The notes beneath the pieces are model-generated. The model searched no databases. It was not told where the DNA came from and saw nothing but the letters and a program-made list of their open reading frames with translations. Shown in pieces: positions 31,998-50,526 of a DNA stretch of 64,000 nt. Where the stretch lies: the NCBI GenBank assembly GCA_029261035.1, contig JAJDCD010000008.1:300480-364479 (forward strand), in the 5' to 3' direction. Origin of the DNA: Candidatus Omnitrophota bacterium. Lineage in GTDB: Bacteria > Omnitrophota > Omnitrophia > Omnitrophales > JACROU01. Made by a program: the position numbers and the translations under genes. How positions within the stretch are numbered: position 1 is the stretch's first letter; each line of letters opens with the position of its first letter.

Positions 31998-34148
31998 TTA
32001 CGTTCTTTGAGTTGGGTTCCCTTGAACCCCTTCAAAAATATTTTCTTCCGTAATCAACGCAAGAGCTATATCGTTTAAGGGATCTTCATGAAAGCGTTTC
32101 CGAATCGCATTATCATTAAGATAATTATTAATTGCTACTAAAATCATAGCTTGATCCAAAGCTAAATATCGGTACGCCACAGTTCCTGTCTCTGGGTTTA
32201 CAGCATCGTAGAAACCATATTCTCCGTAAATATCATACCGGTCGATCAATCGTCTTAAGTTTTCAGCCACAATTTCAGGAGCTATACCCGCGGCTAATAC
32301 ACTTGCATGAGGTGTAACTGCTCCAGCTTTATAACCCTTTAACCCTAATATCTTCACCCCATACTCTGAATAACCTCCTTCGGGAATAGCAGATGGACTC
32401 ATCCCCCATACAGGATAATCTAATTCTTCAAGAGCATGATAAATTTGCCCTTCTACGTGGCGTTGTGCATTTATTCCTAAACTATCTGGAGAATATTGTT
32501 GCTCATCAATAATCAATTCTGGCATCAAGGCTTCAAAAGAAGATCCCCCCCAACTTGGAACATACTTCAGCTTGCGCCACTCATAGTAGCCTCCGTAAAA
32601 ATTAACGCCCAACACTTCTTTTTGTTCTCTCTCAAAAGGTTCCATGGTTTGCCAAAAGAAATCTCGTGGAAATGTTCTAAACATATAGAACCAATGTTCT
32701 ACAGGCACTTGCCCTAACCCAATAGCAATATAACTGCCCGCACGACTCTCATTAAAAAATGCCCCATAATGATAATCCACATACTGATTCATGTGACCAT
32801 AATACCCATGAAACATCTGTCTTTCGACATCATCATAAAAGAAACCAAAATCATATTGATCTAAGTAATTTTGACAAACAGTACCCACTTCATCGGGAAA
32901 TGCATTTTTGGCTACGATCAAACCTGCCGCAACCCATGCGCTATCCACAAAAGACACAAAGTAACTCGTCTTCTCTTTTGTCGTTGTATCGTAATAGTTA
33001 TACGGAAATCCACTTTCATGATGCTCTAAGCTTTGCATCGACGTCACTGTATTTGTAATTCTTTCGACAGCGTCATCTCGAGTTATAAACTTAAGATCAT
33101 AAGCAGATACAACAGCCATTAAATACATGCCGACATTCGTTACGTTCGTATAGTCCCCAATCCATCCCCCTTCACCAATAGGGGTTTCCTCACCCATTTG
33201 AATCGTATCCAACACAAGATGGCTTTCTTTATCAACAATCTCATCAAAGTAACGCCATGTATCTTTAGCTACTTCTCTAAAAAATGCTTTGTCTTCTTTT
33301 GGGAATTCTTTCTTCAACAACTTTTGCTCAGGAAAGCCTCCGAGTCTACCGGCTAAGAAACGAGCGAATTCAACCCCTTCAATCTTAGTCTCTGTCTTCT
33401 CTATCTTCCGTTCTGGACTAGATAATGGAGATGGACCGGGATCTCCCGTCTTTACGAACTTAATGTTATCTACAAAAATAGCGCCTTCTTTTACATCTAC
33501 TCGACGATCTTCCATCACAATTACAAATTCATCTAATTTTTTAAACGCCATTGCGGGGTTTTGCCAAATCTCAGGATCAGCAAAGTCCATCAAACCCGTA
33601 AAATTATTCAAAGCAATACTGTAGGTTTGCCATTCGGAAGTAATACCCTCAATAACATAAATACCTGTCAGCTTTTCAACTCTTTCATCATTTTTAAATT
33701 TCTTAATTTCCAATTTCAAAACTGAAGGAAAGCCTTCTTCAACATCTCCCTTAATATCAATCTCAAGGTGATCAAACATAGAAACATCTAAATTTCTAAG
33801 TTTGGTCCAAAAACCATTTGATGATGGAAGTGGAGAGTCGACATCATAGGTAAGCTTTAATACATAGTTCAGTTTTTCGTTATTAATACCGGGGTCTGAA
33901 ACAACTTCAGGAAAAGCATCTGCAGTATCATCATAAGGGTCCACATCCCAAGCGCCACTTTGCGCGTCCAAGTTATTCAACAGCTCTCCTGTTTCAAAAT
34001 CATGAATCATCATATCTTCCACATATTCAGGAGCTTCAAGCATAGGAGACACTTCTTCTTGAGCAAGTAAAGGGGAAACAGAAAAAACAGAAACAAGAAA
34101 GACTAAAACTAGAATTAACGCTCTAAAATTATTTGGAAGTAATGACAT
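31998..34148 (-). CDS. Secreted two-domain protein: N-terminal CBM-like β-sandwich domain plus C-terminal DUF3131/GH144-like (α/α)6 glycoside-hydrolase-like domain (β-1,2-glucanase-related)
   Basis: Signal peptide. N-terminal domain is paralogous to 46921-47505 and 49197-49778 (AWDVDPYDDT…YDVDS…GFW.KL…SEWQ…FVDNIKFV). C-terminal domain is paralogous to 24013-25848. Confidence 0.6.
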   Translation of the reverse strand: MSLLPNNFRALILVLVFLVSVFSVSPLLAQEEVSPMLEAPEYVEDMMIHDFETGELLNNLDAQSGAWDVDPYDDTADAFPEVVSDPGINNEKLNYVLKLTYDVDSPLPSSNGFWTKLRNLDVSMFDHLEIDIKGDVEEGFPSVLKLEIKKFKNDERVEKLTGIYVIEGITSEWQTYSIALNNFTGLMDFADPEIWQNPAMAFKKLDEFVIVMEDRRVDVKEGAIFVDNIKFVKTGDPGPSPLSSPERKIEKTETKIEGVEFARFLAGRLGGFPEQKLLKKEFPKEDKAFFREVAKDTWRYFDEIVDKESHLVLDTIQMGEETPIGEGGWIGDYTNVTNVGMYLMAVVSAYDLKFITRDDAVERITNTVTSMQSLEHHESGFPYNYYDTTTKEKTSYFVSFVDSAWVAAGLIVAKNAFPDEVGTVCQNYLDQYDFGFFYDDVERQMFHGYYGHMNQYVDYHYGAFFNESRAGSYIAIGLGQVPVEHWFYMFRTFPRDFFWQTMEPFEREQKEVLGVNFYGGYYEWRKLKYVPSWGGSSFEALMPELIIDEQQYSPDSLGINAQRHVEGQIYHALEELDYPVWGMSPSAIPEGGYSEYGVKILGLKGYKAGAVTPHASVLAAGIAPEIVAENLRRLIDRYDIYGEYGFYDAVNPETGTVAYRYLALDQAMILVAINNYLNDNAIRKRFHEDPLNDIALALITEENIFEGVQGNPTQRT

Positions 34149-34367
34149 AATCGCCTCATTATATAATAAGTTAAAAAGGGCTAAAGTAAGCGAACAGTAT
34201 ATCGAACATGGGGGTTTTTTTCAATAGGACGGAAAAAACTAAAGCCAGAGGTCTGAGGGCTGAAGTCAGAATAAAGTTTGTCATCCCCGAATGCTTCTGT
34301 CGGTGATCCAGGGTTGTTGCTTTTTATGCTAAAAGCCAACAGCTAATAGCTATAAACAAAAGGAAAT

Positions 34368-35606
34368 TTATTTTTTCAGGTGTTTTGCTGTAGTTGGCCC
34401 AATAATCCCGTCCACAAAAAGGCCTTTTTTCTTTTGAAATGCATATATTGCAGAAATGGTTGTTGAGGTAAATTTTCCATCCACTTGCCCTGGATTAAAT
34501 CCTTTTTTCTTCAATCTAGACTCAAAGGTTTTTCTAGAACTTAATTTCCAATTCTTATTATTCACAGCAATCGCTAATTTCTTTGAAGTTTCTTTTCCTA
34601 TAATACCATCCGGTGTAAGTCCTTTTTTACTCTGAAATTGTTTAATCGCTTTGACAGTTGTCTTTGTAACACTTCCATCGGCTCGACCTGGGTTGTAACC
34701 TAAATTCTTTAAAGAAATTTCAAATATTTTACGTCTTCTTCTACTCCAGTTCTTTTCGTTCAGAGCTTCTTTTTTACCTTTTTTACCAATCGTAAGCCTA
34801 GAATAAAAATCCAACATTTTCTTCAAATCATTCCAAGGACTTAAGCTACCTAAAATAGAAACTAAAAAGTCACGCTTGTTATAAGAAATTCTTCCAACGA
34901 AACAATAAAGAGCCGCTCTAGTAAAACCTGTCTTTCCAATAATAGGCCTACTATCTCTCCACAACATTTTATTATGATTTTTTAAATAGTACCTTTTACC
35001 TGCCAAATTTTTTATATGCGTTGTTTTTGTCGCCATCGTTTTCATAATAAAAGGATATTTTTTCGCTTCTTTCATAATCAATGCCAAATCATAAGGAGTT
35101 GTGTACTGCCCTTTTCCAGGAAGCCCATGAGGGTTCACAAACCTAGTACTCTTTGCCCCAATCTGCCTCGCCTTCTGATTCATAAGCTTCGCAAAAGAAC
35201 GTTCGGAACCACTAATGTGATGTGCTATCACAGTAGCCACATCATTGGATGATTTGATCAACAAGGCTCTAAGCAAATCCTTAACGTAAAACTTTTCGCC
35301 GGGTTTCAAATAAAGCTTGGTTGGAGATATATGAGAAGTGTTTACATTCACCTTTACCACTTTATTTAGATTCAGACGGTCCAAAACAACTAAGGCCGTC
35401 ATTACTTTAGTCGTACTTGCAGGCTGTCTTTTGGTATTCCTATTTTTGGAATACATAATCTTCCTATTCCCAATATCATAAATAACAGCCGCACGTGCCG
35501 ATAAAGGTGCTCCTAAACTATAACTTGCCTCAGCTGTCTGGGGAACATAGATTGAAACTGCAAAAATAATGAACGCTACAATGGACGAAAATACCTTATT
35601 CAACAT
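34368..35606 (-). CDS. D-alanyl-D-alanine carboxypeptidase (S11, PBP5-type) with two C-terminal PG_binding_1-like repeats
   Basis: Signal peptide. SxxK motif (ASTTKVMTA). Duplicated …GYNPG..DG…T..A…FQ…GL..DGIIG..T motifs. Confidence 0.8.
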
Positions 35607-35773
35607 CGAAAAACACCACCAATTCTATAGTTTTATTTTTAACATGTGATTAACTTTTAATTATACGGCAAAAGGGAGGAATTACTTAAGTAAATAGGTA
35701 TTTTATTAGACTCTCTGGTCTTTGTAAATTAAAAGAGTGCTTAATTTGAAAAAATGAGTAAACTATCCGCATT

Positions 35774-36430
35774 ATGAATAAACAAGAACCTCAAATTATT
35801 TTTGAAGATTCTCATCTAATTGTCCTCAACAAACCTTCTGGGTTACTCAGCCAGGGTGAAAAAACAGGAGACGATAATCTCGTGGACTGGCTAAGAACTT
35901 ATTTAGGTAGAAATTACGTTGGGCTTATTCACCGACTCGACCGAAACACTTCAGGAATTATGGTTGTAGCCAAGCGCACAAAGGCTGCCAGCCGACTAAC
36001 AAAAGCACTTCAAGACAGAGAGATTCAAAGAAACTATCTGGGTTGGGTTGTTGGAACCGTCAAAGAACCCCTTCGCTGGAATCATTTTTTAAGAAAAAAC
36101 AAATCAAAAAATGAAGTTAAAATAGTTCCATCAACATACAAAGATGCCAAAAGAGCTGTTTTGAACCTAAAACCTATAAAAAGCTCTAAGTGGAATGGAA
36201 TGGCTGTAACCCTTGCTGAATTTGAATTGGAAACTGGAAGATCTCATCAAATAAGAGTTCAAGCGGCGGCAGAAGGCCTCCCTCTTTTGGGAGATAATAA
36301 ATACGGTAGAAGAGAAACTGTTTCCTTTGGACGCCCTGCGCTTCATGCTTACAAACTAACTTTCCCACATCCCATCACACAAAAAACAATGTCTTTCAAA
36401 TGCGATCTACCAAAAGAGATGGATTTTTAG
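35774..36430 (+). CDS. RluA-family pseudouridine synthase
   Basis: HRLDRNTSGIMVVAK catalytic motif. Confidence 0.8.
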   Translation: MNKQEPQIIFEDSHLIVLNKPSGLLSQGEKTGDDNLVDWLRTYLGRNYVGLIHRLDRNTSGIMVVAKRTKAASRLTKALQDREIQRNYLGWVVGTVKEPLRWNHFLRKNKSKNEVKIVPSTYKDAKRAVLNLKPIKSSKWNGMAVTLAEFELETGRSHQIRVQAAAEGLPLLGDNKYGRRETVSFGRPALHAYKLTFPHPITQKTMSFKCDLPKEMDF

Positions 36431-36566
36431 AGTTGGGGAAATGGACTTTTGTAACTATTACGCAGTAATTGTGACAAAAGTGCGTGTCCCCTAGGCAAAG
36501 GATGGGCTGTACCCATCAAGAAATTTCATCTTAAGTAACATACTTCAGGTATGAGAATTGCTCTTT

Positions 36567-36616
36567 TGCCTGAGATTGCCACGGTTCCTATATTGCACAC
36601 CTCGCAATGACAAATT
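36567..36616 (+). repeat. Dispersed REP-like element, copy C (single unit)
   Basis: cctgagattgccacggttcctatattgcacacctcgcaatgacaaatt. Overlaps the stop of trhO. Confidence 0.8.
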
Positions 36617-37441
36617 TTATGCCTTGTTAATGCAATAACAACAACTCTCACCCACTCGATAAGATGGAAGTTGCTGTTCTTTAGGCGTTAACGGATGTCG
36701 ACACTGAAAGCACTCTATAACATCGGATTGTTCTAGATTGGGTTTTAAAGCAATGCGTCGATCAAAAACAAAACAGTCTCCATCATAATGATCTCCACCC
36801 ACTTTTTCGAAATAATTTAAAATACCACCATCCAACTGATAAACATCTTTAAAGCCATTTTGAAGCATTAATGGAGAAGCTTTCTCACATCGAATACCTC
36901 CTGTACAAAAAGTAACAACCGTTTTTTCTTTCCAATCTTTTGGCACATCTTGAAGCTTATCTTCATAAGCCCTAAAATCTTCAATGTTAAGATGGGTCGC
37001 ATTTTCAAAAGTTCCAATGTTGAACTCAAACTCATTCCGTGTATCCAATATCACCATATCCTTACCTTCATCGTACCACTGCTTCAATTGTTCAGGAGAA
37101 ACTCTAGGGCCTGTAAACTCTGCAGGCTTAATGGAAGGATCATTAACTGGGATTAATTGATCTTTTGCTTTTACTAACATCTTCAAGAAGGGTTGGTAAT
37201 CAGACCAACTGTCTTTAAAAAATAAATCATCTAGCCCAATTTTTTTTCTTAAAAAATCTTTGAAATTTTCGACATGATCTTCCGTTCCCGAAACCATCAC
37301 ATTCACCCCTTCTCGAGCAATCAAAATAGTTCCCATCAACTCAAGCTCAACACACTTACTTTTATACTCGCGTCGTACTTGCTCTACATCTCCTTCGATT
37401 TCGAAGAAGTAATAAAATGCGGTATTTAAAATTTTACTCAT
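36617..37441 (-). CDS. trhO: Rhodanese-domain protein of the YceA/TrhO family (tRNA U34 hydroxylase)
   Basis: UPF0176 N-terminal region plus rhodanese active-site motif CTGGIRCEKAS. Confidence 0.75.
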   Translation of the reverse strand: MSKILNTAFYYFFEIEGDVEQVRREYKSKCVELELMGTILIAREGVNVMVSGTEDHVENFKDFLRKKIGLDDLFFKDSWSDYQPFLKMLVKAKDQLIPVNDPSIKPAEFTGPRVSPEQLKQWYDEGKDMVILDTRNEFEFNIGTFENATHLNIEDFRAYEDKLQDVPKDWKEKTVVTFCTGGIRCEKASPLMLQNGFKDVYQLDGGILNYFEKVGGDHYDGDCFVFDRRIALKPNLEQSDVIECFQCRHPLTPKEQQLPSYRVGESCCYCINKA

Positions 37442-37442
37442 C

Positions 37443-38096
37443 TTACTTTTCGACTTCCTTTTTATAATAGTCTTTACCCAACTGAACCTTATCTCGTCCC
37501 TGAGACGTCCTCCATTGATTCATGTCTCTTAAAGAATAAACACAACCACAATACTGCTGTTGATAAAACTCTTCTTCTTTTGCGATCTCAATCATTCTTT
37601 GAGAGCCGGCATCTTTTCTCCAGTTATAATCCCAATAAGTAATTTCAGGGAACAAGGATGCCGCTTTAACACCTGCTGCTGTAACCTGTTTAAAATCTTT
37701 CCACCTCGAAATTCCCAAACAACTTGTAATCACTTTAAAGCCATTATGAAAAGCATATTCTGCTGTTTTTACAAAACGCATCTCAAAACACATAGAGCAA
37801 CGCTCACCTCGCTCCTCGTCATTTTCATGTCCTTTTGTAATATCAAACCAACGATCTGTATCATAATCCGCATCCACAAAAGGGATTCCTAGATCCTCAC
37901 AATACCTAATATTCTCTTCCTTTCGGAGCATATATTCCTTCTCAGGGTGGATATTAGGATTGTAAAAATACACTGATAATTCAACCCCAGACTTGTGCAT
38001 ATCCTCTATAACAGAGCCTGAACAGGGGGCACAGCACGAGTGGAGCAAAACCTTCTTTTCCTTGTGGGGTGGGGTAATATTGTCTCTTCGTTTCAT
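37443..38096 (-). CDS. queH: Epoxyqueuosine reductase QueH (DUF208)
   Basis: LLHSCCAPCSG motif and conserved Cys pattern (CGC near the C-terminus). Confidence 0.75.
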   Translation of the reverse strand: MKRRDNITPPHKEKKVLLHSCCAPCSGSVIEDMHKSGVELSVYFYNPNIHPEKEYMLRKEENIRYCEDLGIPFVDADYDTDRWFDITKGHENDEERGERCSMCFEMRFVKTAEYAFHNGFKVITSCLGISRWKDFKQVTAAGVKAASLFPEITYWDYNWRKDAGSQRMIEIAKEEEFYQQQYCGCVYSLRDMNQWRTSQGRDKVQLGKDYYKKEVEK

Positions 38097-38367
38097 GTCG
38101 CTATATTAGCATATTTTACCCCCGACTTAAATCTCCCCTCCCCCTAAAATAAATATTTGACAAATCGACCAAAATAAGGCATCCTTACCACCAGTAGTAA
38201 TTAATTGATAAAAAAACCTATGAGCTTAATGCTTATGGGCGAACGAATTACAATCCCAACCCTAAAAAATCAATAGGGTTGATTATGTACCTGTCATCTA
38301 TCCTCGTTAGTTGGAATTAGTTGGTCTGGTCATTGTTACTACTATTAATCAAAGGAGAACAAGCAAC

Positions 38368-38568
38368 ATGGAACAAGGAACAGTAAAGTGGTTTAACAAT
38401 TCTAAAGGTTTTGGTTTTATTGCACGCGAATCAGGCGAAGATGTATTCGTACATCACACCGCGATTCAAGGCGAAGGTTATAAATCTTTGGATGAAGGCC
38501 AAAAAGTTGAGTTCGAAATAACTCAAGGACCTAAGGGCGACCAAGCAACTAACGTTGTTAAGTTGTAA
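38368..38568 (+). CDS. Cold-shock protein (CspA family)
   Basis: [18 protein letters not shown]…VFVHHTAI (RNP1/RNP2 motifs). Long 5' UTR. Confidence 0.9.
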
Positions 38569-38589
38569 TTTAATTAGGTAATACCAAAA

Positions 38590-38621
38590 GGGCATTCACA
38601 TTTGTGGGTGCCCTTTTTTTT
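38590..38621 (+). terminator. Rho-independent terminator after csp
   Basis: 8-bp stem gggcattc/ggtgccc (with G·U pairs) followed by an 8-T run. Confidence 0.7.
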
Positions 38622-38736
38622 ATGCCAAAAACTTTCAACTGCTGTCATTCCCGAAATCTTTTATCGGGAATCCGTCAACAAAAGAACAAAAGTAAAAGGA
38701 CTTCTGAAAGCTAAAAGCTATCGGCAAAGGACTAAA

Positions 38737-39075
38737 ATGACCTCCGAAGAAAAATCTAAAATCAAAACCGAAATTGAAGAGAAAATCAAACTCACCAAAA
38801 ATAAAATTATTAGTTTAAAAGAACAAACAAAACCTATTCCCCCAGACAGCGCCCTTGGCCGACTTACTCGAATGGATGCTATTCAACAAAAGAGTCTCAA
38901 CGAAGAATCTCTAAGAAAAGCAGAGCAAGATCTTCATAATTCAGAGAACACTTTAAAATTAATCGATAATGAGCACTTCGGAATATGTGTTAAATGCAAA
39001 CAGACAATCCCTATTGGAAGAATTCTTTTAGTCCCAGAATCTAAGTTGTGCGTACCCTGCGCTAATCAAAGGTAG
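38737..39075 (+). CDS. DksA/TraR-family C4 zinc-finger protein (start at internal Met MTSEEK…)
   Basis: Coiled-coil followed by CVKCKQ…CVPC four-Cys finger. Confidence 0.6.
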   Translation: MTSEEKSKIKTEIEEKIKLTKNKIISLKEQTKPIPPDSALGRLTRMDAIQQKSLNEESLRKAEQDLHNSENTLKLIDNEHFGICVKCKQTIPIGRILLVPESKLCVPCANQR

Positions 39076-39078
39076 TTA

Positions 39079-39957
39079 ATGATTCGCTTTATGAAAAACA
39101 TATTAGATACTTTAAAATTTATTCTTAAACACCCTTTGAACAAAAAAAATCCCTTAGGAGCTTTGTGGCGCTGGTTTCAATGGCAAGTCAAAAGCAGGCT
39201 CACAAAAAATCCGATCGCAGTTCCCTTTTTTAACAATTCACAACTTCTAGTCAATAGCGGAATGACAGGCGCTACAGGAAATATTTATTGCGGACTTCAT
39301 GATTTCGAATCTATGGGCTTTTTAGTTCACCTTCTGAATAGGGATAATACCTTTGTTGATGTGGGGGCCAACGTAGGAAGCTACAGCATTCTCAGCGCAA
39401 GCTTAGGAGCTCAGAGCTACTCCTTTGAACCCATACTTAAAGCATACAATAGCCTCAAGGATAATATTAAGCTCAATAGCTATGATTCCATTGTCACCCC
39501 TTTCAACATGGCCGTATCAGACAATGACGGAATAGTGAAAATGTCCTGCGATCTAGACACCGTCAATAGAGTTTTCGAAAACAATAATGATGATTCTCTC
39601 AACACAGTCGAAGTTGAATCTAAAACCCTAGACTCTCTCTTCCCTAACTTAAATCCCATTGCGATCAAAATTGATGTGGAAGGGTTTGAGGATCAAGTAA
39701 TCCAAGGTGGAAAAAACTTTTTTCAAAAAAACTCTTTATTAGCAGCTATCGTGGAGATCAACCAACAATCAACTCATCGATTAATGACTGAAATAGGTTT
39801 CTCCCCTTTTTCATATGACCCTTTCCATAGAAAGCTCAGCCCCATAAAATCTGTTGTAAAAGAAAACTTAAATGTCTTATACTTACGAGATCTTTCATCT
39901 ATCGAGCAAAGGATTAACAGCTCTCCTAAATTTAAAATTCTAGGGCAAGTAATTTAA
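39079..39957 (+). CDS. FkbM-family methyltransferase
   Basis: VDVGANVGSYS motif. Confidence 0.65.
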   Translation: MIRFMKNILDTLKFILKHPLNKKNPLGALWRWFQWQVKSRLTKNPIAVPFFNNSQLLVNSGMTGATGNIYCGLHDFESMGFLVHLLNRDNTFVDVGANVGSYSILSASLGAQSYSFEPILKAYNSLKDNIKLNSYDSIVTPFNMAVSDNDGIVKMSCDLDTVNRVFENNNDDSLNTVEVESKTLDSLFPNLNPIAIKIDVEGFEDQVIQGGKNFFQKNSLLAAIVEINQQSTHRLMTEIGFSPFSYDPFHRKLSPIKSVVKENLNVLYLRDLSSIEQRINSSPKFKILGQVI

Positions 39958-39961
39958 AATC

Positions 39962-40723: not shown

Positions 40724-40832
40724 CTACTTATTTAGGTTTCAAATAAATTGAAAGGCTAAAAATGCTTCTCTTAAATAAATAGTAATTAACATACTCACTC
40801 CATCTTTTATAAATCTATTAAGGAGAAACATC

Positions 40833-41135: not shown

Positions 41136-41162
41136 AAAATAATTACAATAAAAGGAGATGGT

Positions 41163-41735: not shown

Positions 41736-41756
41736 GAACCTCCTAAAGGAGACTCT

Positions 41757-42023: not shown

Positions 42024-42363
42024 TAAAATTGACTATATTGAGAGCCCCACGACAGACATTCAAAAAACTAAAAGTTTTTTCAAACAACTCTTTGGTTGGA
42101 CTTTTCAAGATTTTGGACCTGATTATACAGCCTACGATGACGGCTATATGAAAGGTGGTTTTTATAAATCTGAAACAGTTGCTTCTATTGGAACTGGGAG
42201 TGTCTTAGTTGTTTTTTACAGTACTGAGCTAGAAACTTATAAGGAAAAAATTATTCATCTGGGTGGAAACATCACGAAAGATATTTTTTCTTTCCCAGGA
42301 GGACGGCGATTTCATTTTACTGAGCCTGGTGGAAGTGAATTCGCAATATGGTCCGATAAATAA
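42010..42363 (+). CDS. VOC/glyoxalase-like small protein
   Basis: Size and βαβββ-like pattern. Weak assignment. Confidence 0.35.
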   Translation: MANTNKIDYIESPTTDIQKTKSFFKQLFGWTFQDFGPDYTAYDDGYMKGGFYKSETVASIGTGSVLVVFYSTELETYKEKIIHLGGNITKDIFSFPGGRRFHFTEPGGSEFAIWSDK

Positions 42364-42383
42364 CTCCAAACAAAGGATTCCCA

Positions 42384-43040
42384 ATGGAATGGACATCTGA
42401 GATTGATCAAGGGCTTGTGCGTAAAAAACAAGAAGACAGCATTCAACATTGGCCAAAGGAAAATCCCAAACTATTTATCCTTGGAGATGGGCTTGGAGGA
42501 CTCTCTGACGGAGATATAGCAAGTTCTACTGCTGTTAAACATATTTATGAAACAGCAGAAAAACAAAATGGCTTTAAAACAGTAACAGGTCTTAAGAAAG
42601 CAGTTCAGCAATCCAACAACCGCCTCAAAGAGCAAAACTCATCTAGACCTTCAGAGTCTCATATGGCAACCACCTTAACCCTAGCTTATTTTCAAGACGA
42701 AACCATTCGTTTTGCCCACATCGGAGATAGCCGTATTTACCGAATTAGAAATAATAAAATAAAACAGCTTACCACCGACCATTCTTATGACAGGCACACA
42801 TTAAGCCAAGCTATTGGCTTAGACAGCCATTTGGATATAGACGCTAAAAAGCTCAAAACAAACCCAGGAGACGTCTACCTTATATGCAGTGACGGACTTT
42901 ACGGAATGGTTATGGATGAAACCATCATACAAGAGTATAATAAGAATATCGATATAAAGAAGTACTCAAAAGCTCTTTTAAAACATGCTCTTGAAAATGG
43001 AGGCGAAGATAATATCTCTTTATTCTTAATAAAAATTTAA
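42384..43040 (+). CDS. PP2C-family Ser/Thr phosphatase
   Basis: LFILGDGLGGLSDGD metal-binding motif and C-terminal GGEDNIS. Confidence 0.8.
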   Translation: MEWTSEIDQGLVRKKQEDSIQHWPKENPKLFILGDGLGGLSDGDIASSTAVKHIYETAEKQNGFKTVTGLKKAVQQSNNRLKEQNSSRPSESHMATTLTLAYFQDETIRFAHIGDSRIYRIRNNKIKQLTTDHSYDRHTLSQAIGLDSHLDIDAKKLKTNPGDVYLICSDGLYGMVMDETIIQEYNKNIDIKKYSKALLKHALENGGEDNISLFLIKI

Positions 43041-43067
43041 ACGATATTATTGATCTAAAGAACAACC

Positions 43068-43805
43068 ATGAAAAAGAAGCCAAAAAAGCCAAAAAAAATA
43101 ACAGAATTCAATCTTAAATCTGGAAAAATATTTGATAAAAATTATGAAATATTAGACCTTCTTGGAAAAGGCTGGGAAGGTGAAGTTTATCGCATTCAAG
43201 ATTTAAACACAGGCATAGAAAGAGCTGCAAAACTCTTCTTCCCTCACCGCAACATTAAAAACAAAACATCTAACATTTATGCCGCAAAATTACACCGTCT
43301 TAGAGAATGCCCTGTCGTCATTCATTACCATCATCAAGAAATTATCCGAGTTTCTGGGCAACCGGTAACAGTTTTAGTATCCGAGTACGTTGAGGGAGAA
43401 CTGCTCTCAAATTACTTGCTCAAACAACCCAGAAAACGCTTGAGCCCTTTCCAAGCACTCCATCTCCTTTTTGCCCTTGTTCTCGGAATTGAAAACATCC
43501 ATCATCTAGGCGAATACCATGGAGACTTGCACACAGACAACGTCATCGTCCTAAGGCACGGCTTAAACTATCACCTTAAACTACTCGACTTCTTTCACTA
43601 TGGCCGAGCAACCAAAGAAAATAAAAGTGACGACATCGTTTCTGCCATACAGATTTTCCACGAAGCTTTGGGTGGAGCTAAACAATATTCTAAACAACCC
43701 AAATACATCAAAGAAATATGTCTAGGATTAAAGCACAGTCTTATCAAAAAGAAGTTCAAAACTGCCAGCGACCTTCGAGTCCACCTAGAAAATCTCTCAA
43801 TGTAA
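43068..43805 (+). CDS. Protein-kinase-like protein
   Basis: Gly loop GKGWEGEVY, AAKLF lysine motif, catalytic loop HGDLHTDNV. Confidence 0.65.
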   Translation: MKKKPKKPKKITEFNLKSGKIFDKNYEILDLLGKGWEGEVYRIQDLNTGIERAAKLFFPHRNIKNKTSNIYAAKLHRLRECPVVIHYHHQEIIRVSGQPVTVLVSEYVEGELLSNYLLKQPRKRLSPFQALHLLFALVLGIENIHHLGEYHGDLHTDNVIVLRHGLNYHLKLLDFFHYGRATKENKSDDIVSAIQIFHEALGGAKQYSKQPKYIKEICLGLKHSLIKKKFKTASDLRVHLENLSM

Positions 43806-43851
43806 TTCGCTTATCCACTAGCAGGAAAAAAGGTAGGTTTTTTTGAAGGGC

Positions 43852-44583
43852 TTAATCCCCTTTAACAAAGAAAAGCCAATCGGTATGATTTTCATTAACA
43901 AGCGTATTACGAAAGTTAATCTCTTCTACTCGAACTTCACCAAAAACATTCTTAAGCGCCTCGGCAAACGGAGAACTTTCAGCATAAGACCAGAGACCAA
44001 GAATTCCACCAGGAGCCAAATGCTCCTTAGCTCTCTTCAAACCCTCTTCTGTATAAAAAGCATCATTCCCCTCTTTAATATCTAGATGCTCTCCTGGGGA
44101 GTGATCAATATCAATTAAAATCAAATCGTATTGTCTTTCTGGCGAGGTAGAAAGCTGTTCATAAAAATCTCCCTGAATCACTTCTAAACGATTATCAGAA
44201 TTAAGCTCATCCGACAGAGGCACAAGCCCATCTTTAAGCCAGCGGATCACCTGCGGTAAAAATTCAATGACTTGCAGTTGTTTAACACGTTTAGATTGCA
44301 ACGCTGCACGAGCGGTATACCCCAACCCCAAACCACCCACAAGAACACTAAGATCATTCCCCTGATGCATCTGAAGCGCAATATCCGCCAAAGCACACTC
44401 AGAGTCTGTATTATAACTACTCATCAAAAACTCTTGATTCAAAGTTATCTCAGTAACAAATGTACCAGCTTGCCCCAAAAGCTCCCTACGCCTAAGACAA
44501 AGAACTCCAAGAGGTGTAGACTCATAAGCTAAAATTTCAAAAGAAGATGAATTCATAGCCCCATTATATACTAGACCTCTCAT
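43852..44583 (-). CDS. Spermidine-synthase-like class I methyltransferase-fold protein
   Basis: VLVGGLGLGYT SAM-binding motif and ILIDIDHSP. Confidence 0.5.
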   Translation of the reverse strand: MRGLVYNGAMNSSSFEILAYESTPLGVLCLRRRELLGQAGTFVTEITLNQEFLMSSYNTDSECALADIALQMHQGNDLSVLVGGLGLGYTARAALQSKRVKQLQVIEFLPQVIRWLKDGLVPLSDELNSDNRLEVIQGDFYEQLSTSPERQYDLILIDIDHSPGEHLDIKEGNDAFYTEEGLKRAKEHLAPGGILGLWSYAESSPFAEALKNVFGEVRVEEINFRNTLVNENHTDWLFFVKGD

Positions 44584-44658
44584 AAAAAACCCTAAATCTT
44601 AAAAATAACGACCCCTTGATTTTCAAACCGAAACGACTATAATGTGACCTCTTTTGGT

Positions 44659-44735
44659 GGTGGGCGTAGCTCAGTTGGTAGAGCCCCTGATTGTGGTTCA
44701 GGTTGTCGCGGGTTCAAGTCCCGTCGCTCACCCCA
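44659..44735 (+). tRNA. tRNA-His (anticodon GTG) with encoded G-1 and CCA
   Basis: G-1:C73 extra pair, acceptor GTGGGCG/CGCTCAC, anticodon loop TTGTGGT, T-arm GCGGG-TTCAAGT-CCCGT. Confidence 0.85.
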
Positions 44736-46546
44736 TTTGATACCCTCGGACGAACCGGATCTATTAATCCGGTCGTCGGGTTAAATTCCCGCGGCGGTCT
44801 GCCTCTTCCTTGAGGTTGGCCGCCATTTTGGCTAAACTTTAAGCGCTTCGCATTATTCCCATAGCACTTGCCAATTTCTTCTAAAGTTTCAGCCCAAATT
44901 TTTGTCAGACTGGTGTCAATCGCTGGTTTACAAAATAAACCTACAGTAATTTCTCCCGTCCAACTTTTCCTATCATAAACTTTACAAACCGCGTATCTAA
45001 TGAAGCCTGATAGTAAACTTTTCAACTTTTCCGGTTTATCTTCGCATGAATCAACAATCATCTCGAAAAGTTGAAGCGTTTGAATTTGTTCGCGAGCATT
45101 TCCTGCAAGCCTCGTCTCAGCCTTTAATTCCTGATCGAGTCTCCGTTCTTCCTGGTTGAGCTCGTCAATCTCTGTTTGCAATGCCCGGAGTCTATCTTTC
45201 ACGGTCTCCACCCCACAAACCCCCTTATCTGCTAGCACCTCAACTAAATTTTGAATCTTCTGTTCCGTTTGAGGCTTTAGGGCACGTACGCGAATCAAAT
45301 CTTCATCGAGATCTTTGATTCGGGAGTAACTGGCTTTATTAGCTTTGTTTATCACCTTTTCAATAATAGTGGGTCTCAACTTTAATCTTTTAAGAAATTC
45401 TATAACTGCTTGATCAATCGATTCAGCAGGCACATAAACACTTTCGCATTCTGCGCCGTCTGATTTGTCTGCCTTCGAGCACAAATAATAAGGGTAATAA
45501 CGTTTAACTCTCGATCCACCTATACCCGGTTTTGGCACCATTGATGATTGACAGCTTGGACATCTTAAAAGACCTTGCAGCAGATACACATATTTCTTTG
45601 TTGCATCAAGAGTTTTTCTGCTGTGATTTGTTTTCGAATTGCTCTTGATAATGTTTTGAATCTTTTCGTATACCTTCAGGTCCCGAATAGGCTTCCAGTT
45701 CCCGACGTAACGCTTTCCCTCATAATCCTGGTGACCTGCATACCGAATATTTTGAAGGATTCTTAAAACTTGCGGTTTTGTATAGGATTTACCACGTGGG
45801 GTCTTGTATCCCAGCCTCCTGAGTTCGCGAGCTACTTTATTTGAGCTTTCATGTTGGATATAAAGTCTGTCTATTAAATTTATATGTTTCTTAAAATTAT
45901 TATGAATTAGAAAAGTATGGTGACCATTCTTATCTCTTGTCATTTTATATCCAATGGGTGGTGAGCCAAGAGGACGTCCCTGCTGTACGTGTCTTACGTT
46001 AGTTTCTAAACTATACTGCGAAATGCGATCTGCTTGCCACTGCGCAAGATTGGCATGGTTACGCATAATCATTTGGCCATCAGGCGTTGATGTATCAATG
46101 TCTAAATCGAGACAAACTAATGCAACTCCGGACTCATTAAATTGTCCTGAAATCTGAATGTAATCTAGCAAGTTTCTGGCAATGCGATCCAGCTTTGTGA
46201 CCACAACCACATCAATCAAGCCGCTCTTTGCAAGCAGAAGCGCTTGCCTTAACCCCTCGCGTCCAAATATGGTCGTCGCCGTTTTTCCTCGCCGTTCCCC
46301 CTTCTCATTCTCGTTTTCAACAAAGATCTCCGTCAGCATCCACTTCTGAGGAGTTAGCATGGTGGATTTCGCTTTTACCCAGTTAGCGAGAACATCCTTC
46401 TGATGATCTAAGGATTCGCCAATCTTTTTCGCCTGCTTGTCTGATGACACCCTTGTAATGCCAAAGACACGAATAGTGTCCTTTTCTTTAAAGCTGTCAA
46501 TCGTTGTAACATTTTGCCATCTTCTTCGTCTCTTTCTCATGCTCAC
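44714..46546 (-). CDS. Large serine recombinase (resolvase domain, recombinase domain, zinc ribbon, coiled coil). C-terminus overlaps the tRNA-His 3' end
   Basis: GITRVSSDKQ catalytic Ser motif. DIDTSTPDG…LAQWQ. Cys-rich CPSCQ…C…C zinc ribbon. ORF stop lies inside the tRNA. Confidence 0.85.
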   Translation of the reverse strand: MSMRKRRRRWQNVTTIDSFKEKDTIRVFGITRVSSDKQAKKIGESLDHQKDVLANWVKAKSTMLTPQKWMLTEIFVENENEKGERRGKTATTIFGREGLRQALLLAKSGLIDVVVVTKLDRIARNLLDYIQISGQFNESGVALVCLDLDIDTSTPDGQMIMRNHANLAQWQADRISQYSLETNVRHVQQGRPLGSPPIGYKMTRDKNGHHTFLIHNNFKKHINLIDRLYIQHESSNKVARELRRLGYKTPRGKSYTKPQVLRILQNIRYAGHQDYEGKRYVGNWKPIRDLKVYEKIQNIIKSNSKTNHSRKTLDATKKYVYLLQGLLRCPSCQSSMVPKPGIGGSRVKRYYPYYLCSKADKSDGAECESVYVPAESIDQAVIEFLKRLKLRPTIIEKVINKANKASYSRIKDLDEDLIRVRALKPQTEQKIQNLVEVLADKGVCGVETVKDRLRALQTEIDELNQEERRLDQELKAETRLAGNAREQIQTLQLFEMIVDSCEDKPEKLKSLLSGFIRYAVCKVYDRKSWTGEITVGLFCKPAIDTSLTKIWAETLEEIGKCYGNNAKRLKFSQNGGQPQGRGRPPREFNPTTGLIDPVRPRVSNGVSDGT

Positions 46547-46590
46547 TCCATTTATTCATTTAGGTATCATATTATATACATAAATGGTAT

Positions 46591-46887
46591 TTATCGCATT
46601 ACTTTTTCCATACAATTTTCCGCCCATATTTCACTTAGCAAATCAATAATTTCTTCAATTCGCTCTTCATGATCCAGTAGGTTAAAGGGGTTCAGCGGAT
46701 TATCTTGCAACGCCTTATATTCATTATTACCTGCTATGCGCACGACAAAACATCCCCTACGCATTTTTAGGGGCTTTCCCTTCAAACATTTTTGTGGGAA
46801 AGGCATTTTCTTCTCCCTCTTTTTTGATCTTGCGATATTAATCACCTCCAAAGGTTTGAATAGCAAGACAACAGCCTTCAGCCTCAC
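46591..46887 (-). CDS. Small basic hypothetical protein (possible recombination directionality or regulatory factor)
   Basis: Position next to the recombinase only. No recognisable motif. Confidence 0.3.
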   Translation of the reverse strand: MRLKAVVLLFKPLEVINIARSKKREKKMPFPQKCLKGKPLKMRRGCFVVRIAGNNEYKALQDNPLNPFNLLDHEERIEEIIDLLSEIWAENCMEKVMR

Positions 46888-46920
46888 TGTTTGTCAATGA
46901 GACTGAAAGCTGATATTTTT

Positions 46921-47505
46921 TTAAACAAAACTTATCTGATCAATATAAAGCGACCCTGCTTTTGGCCTCGAATTTACATCGTCAAAAACGATCACAAATT
47001 CATTCAGGCTAGTCCAGTCATTGATTCGCCTGAATTTTTCAAAAGGGATCGTGACTCTTTGCCATTCACTGGTAATTCCACTTACCACGTATGCGGACGG
47101 TCTCGCGCTCATGTCCTTCAATTCAATTTTTATTCGATTCGTAAACTCTTTTTCGGCATCACCCTTCACAAAAAAGCTAAGCGAGTTGAATCTGCTTGCA
47201 TCCTCACCGTTTAGCTTCATCCAGAATCCGTTATATGCTGGATTCACAGAATCGACATCGTAATCCAATCTCACGGAATAGCCTGCCGAATCACCTAACG
47301 CATCATCCGGTTCAAAGGATAATTTCGTTCCTTGGGTATCATCATAAGGATCTTTATCCCAGGCTCCGAAATCACCTCCGATATTATTTGGTTTGTCTCC
47401 GGTATCAAAATCAGCTATCACGAGTTCGCTTTGTGCTGCGTTTACGACCGGACTAACCATCGCAAAAATCGCCATGACTAAAACAGCTGCGGTTTCTTTT
47501 TTCAT
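46921..47505 (-). CDS. Secreted CBM-like β-sandwich domain protein (paralog of the N-terminal domain of 31998-34148)
   Basis: ATG 47503-47505 with signal peptide MKKETAAVLVMAIFAMVSPVVNA. Shared motifs AWDKDPYDDT, YDVDS, GFWMKL, SEWQ, YIDQISFV. Confidence 0.7.
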   Translation of the reverse strand: MKKETAAVLVMAIFAMVSPVVNAAQSELVIADFDTGDKPNNIGGDFGAWDKDPYDDTQGTKLSFEPDDALGDSAGYSVRLDYDVDSVNPAYNGFWMKLNGEDASRFNSLSFFVKGDAEKEFTNRIKIELKDMSARPSAYVVSGITSEWQRVTIPFEKFRRINDWTSLNEFVIVFDDVNSRPKAGSLYIDQISFV

Positions 47506-47530
47506 TTGTAAGCACTCTCCTTTTTTTGAT

Positions 47531-48079
47531 TTAAAATATTGAAACAATGGAACCGAGGGTTCCATACTTATGCTTCGCCATGATCTTTCTGAATTCCGGA
47601 TCATTCACAAATTGCTTAAGCGCATCCTTCACAAGAAAGTCTGCGATGCGTTCCTTAGCTTCTGACTCCATAAAAGAATCAATCAACACCTCGTAGCCTC
47701 CTGACTTTTTCCCTTCATATTTAAGGACACCTTTTTCATTGATTACTCTGAGTTCGAGAACGAGTGCGGCTTTAACTGGCCGACTCAAGATATCCGGCGA
47801 TGAAAGCTCAAGTCCTCTCACTCTCAAGATGACCTTTTCACTATCCTTGCTTGAAACAAGTTCGATAATACCTTGCTGATCTTCATTCCTTTCAACCTCA
47901 AGACCCGTTTTAAGACCGATGTAATGAACCAAATAACGTGTAACCATATCTCGAAGACTATTATCAGTTGGGATTATCTCCTGACTCTCTTTTACTTTTT
48001 CGGTCATAACTTGGGGCACCGTGGCTGCACAGCCAATAACCAATGAGAGGAGTAATATCGCAAGACTTGAGATCCTCAT
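47531..48079 (-). CDS. Lipoprotein, hypothetical (182 aa)
   Basis: Lipobox LVIGCAAT. Confidence 0.55.
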   Translation of the reverse strand: MRISSLAILLLSLVIGCAATVPQVMTEKVKESQEIIPTDNSLRDMVTRYLVHYIGLKTGLEVERNEDQQGIIELVSSKDSEKVILRVRGLELSSPDILSRPVKAALVLELRVINEKGVLKYEGKKSGGYEVLIDSFMESEAKERIADFLVKDALKQFVNDPEFRKIMAKHKYGTLGSIVSIF

Positions 48080-49200
48080 GCTTTATTACCCTCTTCCGTT
48101 CGTTGTCTAATTTGGTGCTGCATAAAAAGATCACGGCCACGCTGAAGCTCTCGCTTGAGATCATCAGGTTTTGGGAGTTTAAGCTGATATTTTGAGACAA
48201 ATATTTTGTTACTCATGCCACCCGTGGCATACTTCACACATGCGCTACTTTTATTCGCGCACAATACAACGCCAATGGGATCGCTTTCTGCTTGTGGCAT
48301 TAAATGATCTTTTGCCCAGTTCAAATAGAGATTCATTTGACCGGCGTAAGCGTGTGTAAATCGTCCGATTTTGAGGTCCAATATCACATAACAATTTAAA
48401 GGAATATGATAAAGGACGAGATCCATTCGATACTCATCTCCATCCAGATTAAAACGCTTCTGTCGCGATACGAATGTGAATCCGGCTCCGAGTTCCAAAA
48501 GAAATCGTTCAAGGTGATGTATCAAGGCATCTTCAAGATCAAGCTCTGAATACTCATCTTTAAGATTCAAAAACTCAAGAACGTAGGAATCTTTTATTTC
48601 ATCTTCCGGCCGTACAATAATGGGATGTTCATTGGCTTTCTTTAAAACAAGATCTTTACGCTTTGACAGAGCTGTTCTCTCAAAAAGCGCCGCCTGAATT
48701 TCACGATCAAGTTGTCTTGCAGACCAATGGCTTCGCAGACACTCATTTTCATAGAATCTTCTTTTTACCGAATCATCCAACCTCATAAGCTGCCTGTAAT
48801 GTGACCAAGAAAGGCTAAAGGATCTGATCACATCACCTAATGCGGGCGCTTTGGCCAATTCGCTACACACCGTGTAGCGTTTTTCGATGCCTTTGTAGGT
48901 GAGGTAAAACTGCCGTATGGCTCTTAGATGGGCCTCACCCCACCCTTTTCCAAGCTTATGTTTAAGGTCTCCCGACAAATGCTTGAGTAAAGCCTCCCCA
49001 TAGCGAGCTCGATTCCTTCCTTTTTGCTCAAATTCCACGATCCTTCGGCCGGTCAACCAATAGGTAGCAACTAACGCAGCATTAACCTGCCTGACCACAC
49101 TCTCTCGGCCCTCATGAATTAAGGCTGATATGCTGTTGAGCAACTGCCGATAATCGTCCATCCGCACTGCGTTATTTCCTGATGATTTGAGATGCCTCAT
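48076..49200 (-). CDS. YhcG-like PDDEXK nuclease (DUF1016)
   Basis: N-terminal LVATYWLTGRRIVEFEQKGRNRARYGEALLKHLSGDL…GWGEAHLRAIRQFY is the hallmark of DUF1016/YhcG. C-terminal D…E.K-like block. Confidence 0.75.
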   Translation of the reverse strand: MRHLKSSGNNAVRMDDYRQLLNSISALIHEGRESVVRQVNAALVATYWLTGRRIVEFEQKGRNRARYGEALLKHLSGDLKHKLGKGWGEAHLRAIRQFYLTYKGIEKRYTVCSELAKAPALGDVIRSFSLSWSHYRQLMRLDDSVKRRFYENECLRSHWSARQLDREIQAALFERTALSKRKDLVLKKANEHPIIVRPEDEIKDSYVLEFLNLKDEYSELDLEDALIHHLERFLLELGAGFTFVSRQKRFNLDGDEYRMDLVLYHIPLNCYVILDLKIGRFTHAYAGQMNLYLNWAKDHLMPQAESDPIGVVLCANKSSACVKYATGGMSNKIFVSKYQLKLPKPDDLKRELQRGRDLFMQHQIRQRTEEGNKA

Positions 49201-49778
49201 GAAAGAGTGCCTCCCTTCACAACAGAAACTTCTTTCAAAAACAACACACCTTTTTTGGGCCTTGCGTGGATATCATCAATCACAATCTCAAATGTCTTTA
49301 CCTCTGACCAATCCCGGATTCTTCTAAATTTCTGAAGAGGGACTTCAAATTCCTTCCATTCGCTTCTTACTCCTGACAATAAATAGGGCGCTTTACGATT
49401 ATCTTTATCCGTAAATTGAAGTGCTATATTGCCAGTGAAGGGCGGATCGCTTTCAGCTCTCATCCAAAGATGAAGCGATTCATATTCTGATAAATCATGG
49501 CCCTCGATTTTAAGCCAGAAACCTCCCATTGCAGGAAGCGAAGAATCCACATCAAAGAGCACGTCTACTTCTGCGGCGTTCGCGCTAATCTCATGTCTTA
49601 CGCTCTGCGCAGCATCGAGAATGTTATGCTCCCAGGTTCCCATCATGATCTCAGCATCAAGCCGAGTAAGATCGAGTAGATTCAGTTTTTCGTTCTCAGC
49701 ATTCGCTTGCCCTTTAAATGACACGATACATATAAAAAGGAGCAATGCCCTAGAAAGAGTTCTTAAGCACATTCGCAT
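49197..49778 (-). CDS. Secreted CBM-like β-sandwich domain protein (third paralog)
   Basis: ATG 49776-49778 with signal peptide MRMCLRTLSRALLLFICIVSFKGQANA. Motifs DVDSSLP, GGFWLKI, SEWKEF, FLKEVSVV. Confidence 0.7.
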   Translation of the reverse strand: MRMCLRTLSRALLLFICIVSFKGQANAENEKLNLLDLTRLDAEIMMGTWEHNILDAAQSVRHEISANAAEVDVLFDVDSSLPAMGGFWLKIEGHDLSEYESLHLWMRAESDPPFTGNIALQFTDKDNRKAPYLLSGVRSEWKEFEVPLQKFRRIRDWSEVKTFEIVIDDIHARPKKGVLFLKEVSVVKGGTLS

Positions 49779-50508: not shown

Positions 50509-50526
50509 ATAAATAAACTCCTTTTA

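Follow-up and report, generated by a model that had tools for sequence, protein, structure and literature searches.

Family 11 of the carbohydrate-binding modules (CBMs; Pfam PF03425) is represented here by CtCBM11, the appendage of the C. thermocellum enzyme Lic26A-Cel5E (Protein Data Bank (PDB) entries 1v0a and 6r31). Its cleft lies on the concave face of the fold, a β-jelly-roll, and Tyr53 is among the four critical sugar-binding tyrosines that line it (PMC9668296). The CBM11 fold recurs in NDUFAF1 (CIA30 family, PF08547), in which the equivalent cleft holds a peptide loop of ND3, and the sugar-binding tyrosines have been lost save for the equivalent of Tyr53 (PMC9668296). Among enzymes, the glycoside hydrolase (GH) families GH144, GH162, GH189 and GH192-194 form the SGL clan; these families are defined on β-1,2-glucan-acting enzymes, and the β-1,2-glucanases that have been characterised are specific for that polymer (PMC12102758). 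A family 2 glycosyltransferase (GT2), a membrane-fusion protein (MFP) and a TolC channel together serve mixed-linkage-glucan export in S. meliloti (BgsA/BgsB/TolC; PMC13438883), and a cyanobacterial cellulose system has a similar triad (reviewed in PMC8892547 and PMC12430437). All of these bear on a family of CBM11-like proteins that we describe from a stretch of 64,000 nucleotides (hereafter the window) of a Candidatus Omnitrophota genome (GenBank assembly GCA_029261035.1, contig JAJDCD010000008.1, positions 300,480 to 364,479).

In the window the domain is used in two ways: as a module on two secreted SGL-clan enzymes, one of which we call A, and as two island-borne proteins, B and C. Omnitrophota is an uncultivated phylum in which host-dependent lifestyles are suspected. 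Our preferred view, taken with rather more confidence than doubt, is that B and C are exported and bind β-glucan without being enzymes, β-1,2-glucan being their probable specific ligand. We assign this ligand through guilt by association, because the island encodes an OpgH-like synthase and a nucleotidyltransferase whose gene is coupled to that of C, because two enzymes bear the domain, and because A-type genes elsewhere are directly followed by B-type genes. None of the components is of a new kind, whether the CBM-type fold, the SGL-clan enzymes, the tripartite exporter, the integrative conjugative element or the YhcG nuclease. Three points are new: the family itself, CBM11-like but distinct, which extends across the phylum and includes stand-alone paralogues; the consistency with which it is linked to β-1,2-glucan enzymes; and its presence in the payload that a family of conjugative elements conserves.

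A CBM11-like domain in four reading frames

The first-pass annotation of the window had pointed to three copies of the domain, and all three are borne out, on the minus strand throughout. Enzyme A (31998-34148, 716 amino acids) has copy 1 at 33414-34031, corresponding to residues 40-245 or thereabouts, recognised by BLASTP to B and by the domain profile A3 (E=4e-62). Copies 2 and 3 are the stand-alone proteins B (46921-47505, 194 amino acids) and C (49197-49778, 191-193 amino acids, gene callers elsewhere placing the start 2 amino acids downstream), both exported by prediction. The N-terminal 200 or so residues of A align with the entire mature B and C, and BLASTP gave 37% identity between the A domain and B (E=6e-37), 30% between B and C (E=7e-38) and 24% between the A domain and C (E=6e-16). 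Because of these E-values the triplication is true homology, far above chance. A fourth and diverged copy (24064-24438, minus strand; profile A3 E=9e-8) had been overlooked: it is C-terminal in the second SGL-clan enzyme (gene 24013-25908), where the profile match spans residues 527-603 of a 639-amino-acid reading frame (24016-25932).

The domain measures about 170 amino acids rather than the 150 or so first estimated. The motifs by which it had been recognised are present in A and B (GAWD.DPYDDT, YDVDS, GFW.KL, SEWQ and [IV]D.I.FV) and are degenerate in C, which has GTWEHNILDAA, FDVDS, GFWLKI, SEWK and LKEVSVV at these places. The signal peptides proposed for the two stand-alone copies are of the Sec type by eye, with cleavage predicted between SPVVNA and AQ in B and between KGQANA and EN in C, and A has one too (SPLLA followed by QE).

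A 55-sequence alignment was made for the B family, and the AlphaFold2 model of B, at a mean predicted local distance difference test (pLDDT) score of 88.7, is all-β. The best PDB match of this model in Foldseek was CtCBM11 (1v0a, E=1.4e-9, TM-scores 0.58/0.66). The top four matches were all CtCBM11 structures (E 1.4e-9 to 8e-8, TM-scores 0.58-0.69), and below them ranked CBM22, CBM4 and CBM28, followed by accessory β-sandwich domains of glycosidases; the β-jelly-roll of B can be superimposed on that of CtCBM11. It is because the best solved match is CtCBM11 that the earlier description of the domain as CBM-like holds, and the repeated unit, as modelled, is a genuine CBM-type β-jelly-roll with CBM11 as its nearest structural relative. 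The likeness to CtCBM11 in sequence is weak but consistent and lies over the C-terminal two-thirds: in a search of PDB sequences with the family profile, CtCBM11 came out best (E about 0.003, 17-19% identity), and numerous B homologues have weak precomputed PF03425 matches. Sequence does not suffice to place the proteins in CBM11 proper, and by this measure they are a separate, uncurated family that has undergone expansion in Candidatus Omnitrophota.

In the hidden Markov model (HMM) alignment, the invariant G-[FY]-W motif coincides with Gly52-Tyr53-Trp54 of CtCBM11, Tyr53 lying opposite the conserved F/Y, while the invariant Tyr139 lies opposite His102 and the near-invariant Asp163-Trp164 opposite Asp128-Tyr129. 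The other three critical tyrosines of the CtCBM11 cleft we take to be Tyr22, Tyr129 and Tyr152; of these, Tyr152 is opposite an Asn in the HMM alignment, and Tyr22 falls outside the aligned stretch.

By analogy with NDUFAF1 and its ND3 loop, B and C might instead clamp a peptide loop, acting as periplasmic assembly factors or as accessory subunits of TolC/adaptor machines, which would be the RND pumps in the chromosomal settings and the GT2-HlyD-TolC system in the island. NDUFAF1 manages with only the Tyr53-equivalent aromatic, weak Pfam CIA30 matches occur in B (E 0.016) and in 9 of 66 long members of the family, genes with the OEP domain (the TolC-type channel) and MFP genes are present in two of the four recurrent contexts described below, and the high conservation is more like that of protein-protein interfaces than that of CBMs. 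We nevertheless think such a role unlikely, as the domain is repeatedly fused to glycoside hydrolases and to other CBMs, A-type enzymes adjoin it, and several invariant aromatic and acidic residues are retained at cleft positions, with aromatics at the Tyr53 and Tyr129 positions alike. Foldseek also puts true CBMs first, and no CIA30/NDUFAF1 structure is among the 50 matches listed.

Both enzymes with PF10091 domains in the window carry the CBM11-like domain, N-terminal in A and C-terminal in the 24013-25908 enzyme, and both belong to the SGL clan by their scores (71.9 and 44.8 bits, respectively, at a cut-off of 27). The catalytic part of A (31998-33413, minus strand) would be an (α/α)6-barrel of GH189/GH193-like type (PF10091 7e-20, DUF3131 1.2e-7). 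Its previous description as GH144-like stands only at the level of the clan, because its closest solved relative by far is 8wy1 (E=1.5e-43, aligned over most of the chain), the transglycosylation domain of the T. italicus cyclic β-1,2-glucan synthase and founding member of GH189. GH144 structures gave E-values of only 1e-7 to 1e-10, the match to the GH144 enzyme CpSGL (5gzh/5gzk; E about 1e-7) covering some 70 C-terminal residues, so that no close relationship to GH144 was found. The alignment to 8wy1 skips residues 140-276 or so of that structure, about 135 residues that have no counterpart in A, and from this sequence alignment A would lack the long α5 helix and the extra helices between α4 and α5 that are conserved only within GH189 (PMC12102758). 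The 24013-25908 enzyme is secreted and matches PF10091 at 1.4e-11 and Cgs/8wy1 at about 1e-15; its neighbours are genes for a LacI-family regulator (26164-27180) and a lipid A acyltransferase (22818-23726). No SGL-clan member has been reported with a CBM11-like module in PMC12102758, although the uncharacterised PgSGL4 also bears putative carbohydrate-binding domains (PMC12102758).

A phylum-wide family and its chromosomal settings

In a word-indexed search, more than 1,095 proteins were found at 60-75% identity to B, of which the best 120 are 62-100% identical and 183-223 amino acids long; every named record is from Candidatus Omnitrophota. Only 11 C homologues sharing words were found in the same type of search. 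When 1.84 billion cluster representatives were searched exhaustively with a profile, 1,529 members of the family were found at E<=1e-3. Most members are stand-alone proteins of 190-240 amino acids, while others are fusions or contain the domain 2-5 times in tandem. Neither the plasmids of PLSDB nor the viral contigs of IMG/VR contained B-type genes.

Fusion partners were scanned in all 66 proteins longer than 260 amino acids among the top 150 family representatives. PF10091 was the commonest (8 of the 66), ahead of OmpA_C (7), CBM9 (5), GH2_C (3), GH72, LysM and FecR (2 each) and a protein kinase (one Ser/Thr kinase with TPR repeats). The domain itself was matched in these proteins by CBM_11 (21), CBM30 (13) and CIA30 (9), and the sole name that a cluster look-up returned for the long fusion proteins was that of an Omnitrophota protein. 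Because of this set of partners, the domain can be described as a putative extracytoplasmic glycan-binding module that is built into enzymes, wall anchors and sensors.

The surroundings of B-type genes were compared at 80 loci, one genome per species, all labelled Omnitrophota or uncultured metagenome-assembled genomes (MAGs), at least 11 MAGs giving two loci (individual loci are cited below by L numbers). Neighbours were classed by tblastn, clustering and Pfam, and four settings recur. At 25 loci the order is an extracytoplasmic function (ECF) sigma factor, a small anti-sigma-like protein with a single transmembrane segment, a secreted protein of about 150 amino acids, B, and a lipoprotein of about 205 amino acids, which stands alone beside B at 7 further loci. 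At 23 loci a resistance-nodulation-division (RND) operon, encoding a TolC-like protein, an adaptor and two AcrB proteins, is followed by a HAMP-like protein with two transmembrane segments, B, and downstream HisKA_7TM kinases. At 13 of the 80 loci a B-type gene comes directly after an A orthologue whose catalytic part is 40-44% identical to that of A, at a distance of 3-220 nucleotides or with a short overlap. The fourth setting is the mobile island discussed in the next section. In a neighbour-joining tree B-type sequences cluster largely by genomic context. Sequence and synteny thus characterise the B-type protein as a phylum-wide, multi-paralogue Omnitrophota family for which the island is not the main context.

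Some details of these settings deserve mention. The 150-residue secreted, HAMP-like and anti-sigma-like neighbours of B show no similarity to one another and, where scanned, had no Pfam matches. The HAMP-like protein, of about 212 amino acids (L028 9125-9760), always lies between the RND operon with its two AcrB genes and B, at about 23 loci; the RND operon, the HAMP-like protein, B and the HisKA_7TM kinases may constitute a conserved Omnitrophota envelope-signalling locus. In the A orthologues, the N-terminal 250 or so residues give a weak match to the domain profile or none (E from 1e-9 to above 1e-3, against 4e-62 for A of the window), the loci with such weakly matching orthologues being L027, L037, L049, L058, L062, L067, L075, L083-L087 and L089. 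Because of this, the fused copy in A of the window looks unusually near to the stand-alone type, and could reflect domain replacement or conversion.

The sigma factor and kinase neighbours raise the question of a signalling role. Stand-alone B-type proteins might be periplasmic ligand sensors or co-sensors instead of structural binders, reporting a periplasmic glucan or another envelope glycan to adjacent signalling systems, and the island copy might be an additional paralogue that tunes such signalling while the glucan system of the element is active; an analogy is provided by the CBM-bearing RsgI anti-sigma factors of C. thermocellum. The idea draws on the gene orders at about 25 ECF and about 23 RND loci, on the two proteins among the 66 in which the domain is joined to a FecR anti-sigma domain, on its fusion to the Ser/Thr kinase with TPR repeats, and on the strong sequence conservation, which would suit a fixed endogenous ligand. 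Adjacency to sigma factors and kinases, however, may make B merely a regulated target, glycoside hydrolase fusions outnumber sensor fusions, and the island has no adjacent sensor, its nearest regulator being only the sigma-70 region 4 protein (62369-63043), so that as an account of B and C we consider sensing improbable.

The island and its operon

The two stand-alone genes of the window lie on what is, to judge from the integrase, tRNA and type IV secretion system (T4SS) genes within the window, an integrative conjugative element inserted at tRNA-His (44660-44735, plus strand, located by ARAGORN). The GC content shifts at this boundary, from about 0.37 before the tRNA gene to 0.40-0.44 in the island, and all genes inward of tRNA-His are on the minus strand. 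At the boundary itself is the gene for the island integrase (44714-46546), a large serine recombinase that matches the models Resolvase (1.1e-21), Recombinase (6.4e-11) and Zn_ribbon_recom (8.4e-14), as well as NCBIfam XisF and Ccr-type models. Genes for mating-pair formation occupy 54759-62202 and encode TrbC/VirB2-like pilin and VirB3-like, VirB4/TraC, VirB6-like, CagX/VirB9-like and TrbI/VirB10-like proteins (NCBIfam TraC-F-type 8.5e-88; Pfam CagX, TrbI, CtnDOT_TraJ and TrbC on orthologues). No att-type direct repeats that would mark the far end of the island were found in 44600-64000.

In the order of transcription, the sigma-70 region 4 regulator comes first, followed by the T4SS genes and then by genes for a TolC-family outer-membrane channel (53051-54427; NCBIfam type_I_sec_TolC 1.8e-19, Pfam OEP in orthologues), an OpgH/MdoH-like membrane GT2 (51481-53097; Pfam Glyco_trans_2_3 4.2e-16), a HlyD-like periplasmic adaptor, i.e. 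an MFP (50527-51456; HlyD_3 2e-17, NCBIfam RND_mfp 2.8e-21), and a sugar-1-phosphate nucleotidylyltransferase (49750-50508; Pfam NTP_transferase 2.5e-32). The last of these matches glucose-1-phosphate types best, its best NCBIfam models being of the RmlA, AglF and GlmU types, each below cut-off, and it is 55-90% identical to its island orthologues. Then come C, a YhcG/DUF1016 nuclease (48076-49200), a lipoprotein (47531-48079) and, as the last gene of the operon, B, beyond which lie a terminator-like hairpin of 18 pairs (46872-46912, minus strand, starting 9 nucleotides past the B stop), a small excisionase-sized open reading frame and the recombinase gene. Terminator-like sites are in total no more numerous in the sequence than in shuffled versions of it, so that the hairpin after B is only suggestive. 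In three successive pairs of genes the stop codon of the first overlaps the start codon of the second: the nucleotidyltransferase gene and C, C and YhcG (by 4 nucleotides), and YhcG and the lipoprotein gene (also by 4). A motif of 39 nucleotides occurs at the starts of the B, HlyD-like and VirB10-like genes (47497-47535, 51448-51486 and 54725-54763); on the minus strand it comprises the ribosome-binding site AAAGGAGA, a spacer and the start codon ATG, followed by a second codon rich in A. It resembles a strong site of translation initiation common to the three genes more than a repeat with a regulatory role.

As far as can be told from its genes, the operon has the layout of a tripartite glucan synthase/exporter: here too, as in the BgsA/BgsB/TolC and cyanobacterial systems, GT2, HlyD-like and TolC-family proteins are encoded together and co-directionally, an arrangement that is conserved in L007, L008, L064, L065 and L073. 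The differences are that the GT2 is OpgH-like and not BcsA/BgsA-like, that the genes are on a conjugative element, directly after T4SS genes, and that a nucleotidyltransferase and one or two exported CBM-like proteins, absent from the known systems, are added. The best NCBIfam match of the GT2 is MdoH (5.3e-47, near full length). The likeness to OpgGH extends to the secreted β-1,2-glucan-clan enzymes that the genome also encodes, but the island operon has no OpgG/OpgD (GH186) gene, and the linkage of the GT2 to TolC and HlyD suggests export past the periplasm, unlike OpgGH. The suggestion that the CBM-like proteins might be partners of an OpgH-like system is strengthened by synteny, as the stop of the nucleotidyltransferase gene overlaps the start of C and the TolC/GT2/HlyD operon occurs in 10 other loci. 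In the chromosomal part of the window a CHASE2-GGDEF diguanylate cyclase is encoded (10968-12749, minus strand), which is possibly relevant, known GT2/MFP/TolC glucan systems being controlled by cyclic diguanylate.

The polymer made by such an operon might be another one, a mixed-linkage β-1,3/1,4 or cellulose-like glucan from a BgsA/Xcs-type synthase, with B and C as matrix lectins that aid cell-cell contact in conjugation or attachment to a host. CtCBM11 binds mixed-linkage β-1,3-1,4-glucan (6r31, 6r3m), the experimentally supported precedent of a GT2, an MFP and TolC makes mixed-linkage glucan (PMC13438883), and in all island loci the glucan module has the T4SS genes directly on one side and the integrase gene directly on the other. 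On the other side, MdoH/OpgH is the best family of the GT2, which has no sequence match in the PDB, BcsA-type synthases included, and the commonest enzymatic partner of the domain, by fusion or as a neighbour, is the β-1,2-glucan-specific SGL clan (PMC12102758). With these points in mind we regard a ligand of the mixed-linkage or cellulose-like kind as distinctly improbable.

The related island loci number 10, or 11 counting the window. The same array, at protein identities from about 47% to 94%, is found in L007, L008, L064, L065, L073 and L088; L014 (the same as L003), L063 and L080 are rearranged, and L009 is decayed. The series TolC, GT2, HlyD and nucleotidyltransferase, then C and/or B, is present in L007, L008, L014, L063, L064, L065, L073, L080 and L088. 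The overlap of the nucleotidyltransferase and C genes is conserved among island loci, C is absent in L064, L065 and L073, and B is always present where the region from nucleotidyltransferase to recombinase is complete. In L014, L063 and L088 (e.g. L003 8680-9873), a protein of about 400 amino acids with AAA_16 and a MarR-type winged helix is encoded between B and the recombinase, together with a 59-amino-acid MerR-like protein of excisionase type; at this place the window has only its small open reading frame.

The C-type proteins of the islands form a clade of their own (bootstrap 100/100), which the domain of A joins at 84%. B of the window groups at 97% with B of L007 and L009, a trio that lies among the ECF-type proteins in the neighbour-joining tree. 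That the island acquired B only once finds no support in the tree, where all island B proteins come together as one clade in just 8 bootstrap replicates out of 100; the alternatives are also weak. From these groupings, the B slot of the island may have been filled more than once.

The position of B and C on either side of the YhcG gene and the lipoprotein gene, to which the first-pass annotation had drawn attention as an unusual context for CBMs, is real, and it is not unique to this genome, because L007 and L088 have the same order C-YhcG-lipoprotein-B, as does L009, in which C is truncated. Both Pfam domains of the nuclease, which is of the PDDEXK type, score above their cut-offs (YhcG_C 2e-55, 187.4 bits; DUF1016_N 4.6e-39, 134.1 bits), placing it in the YhcG family, and it matches over its full length the candidate single-gene phage-defence family PDC-S02 of PADLOC (5.3e-130); there is nothing distinctive about it except its placement inside an operon for exported proteins. 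One could imagine that C, YhcG, the lipoprotein and B form a single functional unit, for example in surface-sensing defence or exclusion, in view of the tight packing of the genes, with 4-nucleotide overlaps on both sides of YhcG, and of the recurrence just described. This we think very unlikely indeed. YhcG is the only one of the four without a signal peptide, and would because of this act in another compartment than C, B and the lipoprotein; it is present in 8 of the 11 island loci, L008, L014 and L063 lacking it and yet keeping C and B or the lipoprotein (in L008 with a 4-nucleotide overlap of C and the lipoprotein gene), whereas L064, L065 and L073 lack C and keep YhcG; and about 70 of the 80 B-type loci have no YhcG nearby. 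A "CBM-YhcG-CBM" unit was rejected on these grounds, and we read YhcG as a facultative, independent passenger, by its sequence a defence-type nuclease, and not as a partner of the CBMs; because it is facultative and matches PDC-S02, the CBMs around it would reflect operon packing.

The lipoprotein, directly upstream of B, has the lipobox LVIGC, and homologues fill the same slot in L007, L008, L009, L064, L065, L073 and L088; only 5 were found by homologue search. Its AlphaFold2 model is poor (pLDDT 64.7), and the best Foldseek match to that model was only at E 0.018 with a TM-score below 0.35. In hhalign it was linked only marginally (probability 44%) with the lipoprotein encoded after B in the ECF setting. 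The C-terminal third of the island lipoprotein is extremely conserved (ADxLVKDALKQFVNDPEFRKIMAKHKYGTLGSIVSIF) and ends in a terminal Phe.

Two other features of the window lie away from these subjects. The tmRNA gene (27380-27787, minus strand) has a predicted tag peptide that is unusually long (ADKNISLGDRVELHNVNFAPVALPLAA), and two proteins of about 1,580 amino acids are encoded at 715-5460 and 17993-22717 (both minus strand), one without any Pfam match and the other with a C-terminal WD40 β-propeller.

The probable ligand and its implications

If B and C are β-glucan-binding proteins, as we favour, the island operon might work as follows. The nucleotidyltransferase would supply NDP-glucose, from which the GT2 would polymerise a β-glucan, most likely β-1,2-linked, and the HlyD-like adaptor and TolC-like channel would carry it across the envelope. 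B and C, either periplasmic or located on the cell surface, would hold the polymer through the conserved aromatic and acidic residues of their clefts, and would in this way retain, organise or present it. The chromosomal enzymes would target the same polymer with the same module, for trimming or transglycosylation. The cellular location of B and C and their cooperation with the synthase are, like the ligand, what we infer from this arrangement.

Several observations weigh against this picture. The match of B to Pfam CBM_11 (25.6 bits, E 1.5e-5) is below the cut-off of 27 bits, and A and C have no match to that model at E<=0.1. Three of the critical tyrosines in CtCBM11 can be aligned, and the family has an aromatic residue opposite just two of them, Tyr152 being replaced by Asn. 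Moreover, the ligands of CtCBM11 itself are β-1,4- and β-1,3-1,4-glucans, not β-1,2-glucan (titles of 6r31 and 6r3m); whereas CBM11 is associated with β-1,4- or β-1,3-1,4-glucanases as an appendage, the family here is mostly of stand-alone exported proteins and is associated with β-1,2-glucan enzymes. The peptide held by NDUFAF1 indicates that a cleft of this fold can have quite another use. B-type proteins are highly conserved for a CBM, with 60-75% identity across the phylum, far above the conservation within CBM11, and B of the window is 94% identical to that of L007, whereas YhcG, the lipoprotein and C there are 63-67% identical and the neighbours 63-90%. The commonest contexts of B-type genes are ECF or RND loci and not glycan operons. 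Finally, the GT2 reaches 160.4 bits against an MdoH equivalog cut-off of 419, which makes it OpgH-like and not an OpgH equivalog.

A wider proposal, which we put forward as a long shot, is that this is the first CBM family specific for β-1,2-glucan, and that its stand-alone members are periplasmic or surface glucan receptors. In the chromosomal settings they would be sensors wired to ECF sigma factors, kinases and efflux; on the conjugative elements their partner would be an OpgH-like/HlyD/TolC exporter that is self-transmissible, takes part in transfer or host attachment and is not free cargo. In the literature searched, no CBM for β-1,2-glucan was described (an absence there being no proof), no account was found of how cells sense β-1,2-glucans, and there was nothing specific on T4SS islands of Omnitrophota.

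Through its fusions to, and synteny with, enzymes of the β-1,2-glucan clan and an OpgH-like synthase, the domain, which is compact and highly conserved, becomes a concrete candidate for a non-catalytic binder or sensor. If β-glucan binding by B and C is correct, a secreted protein that ranks among the most conserved "hypothetical" ones in the Omnitrophota would gain a function, and a family of conjugative elements would be defined that has a conserved payload for the synthesis, export and binding of a glycan. Should the ligand turn out to be an ordinary one, or the domain to bind protein, the result would still be a useful annotation of a phylum-wide family.

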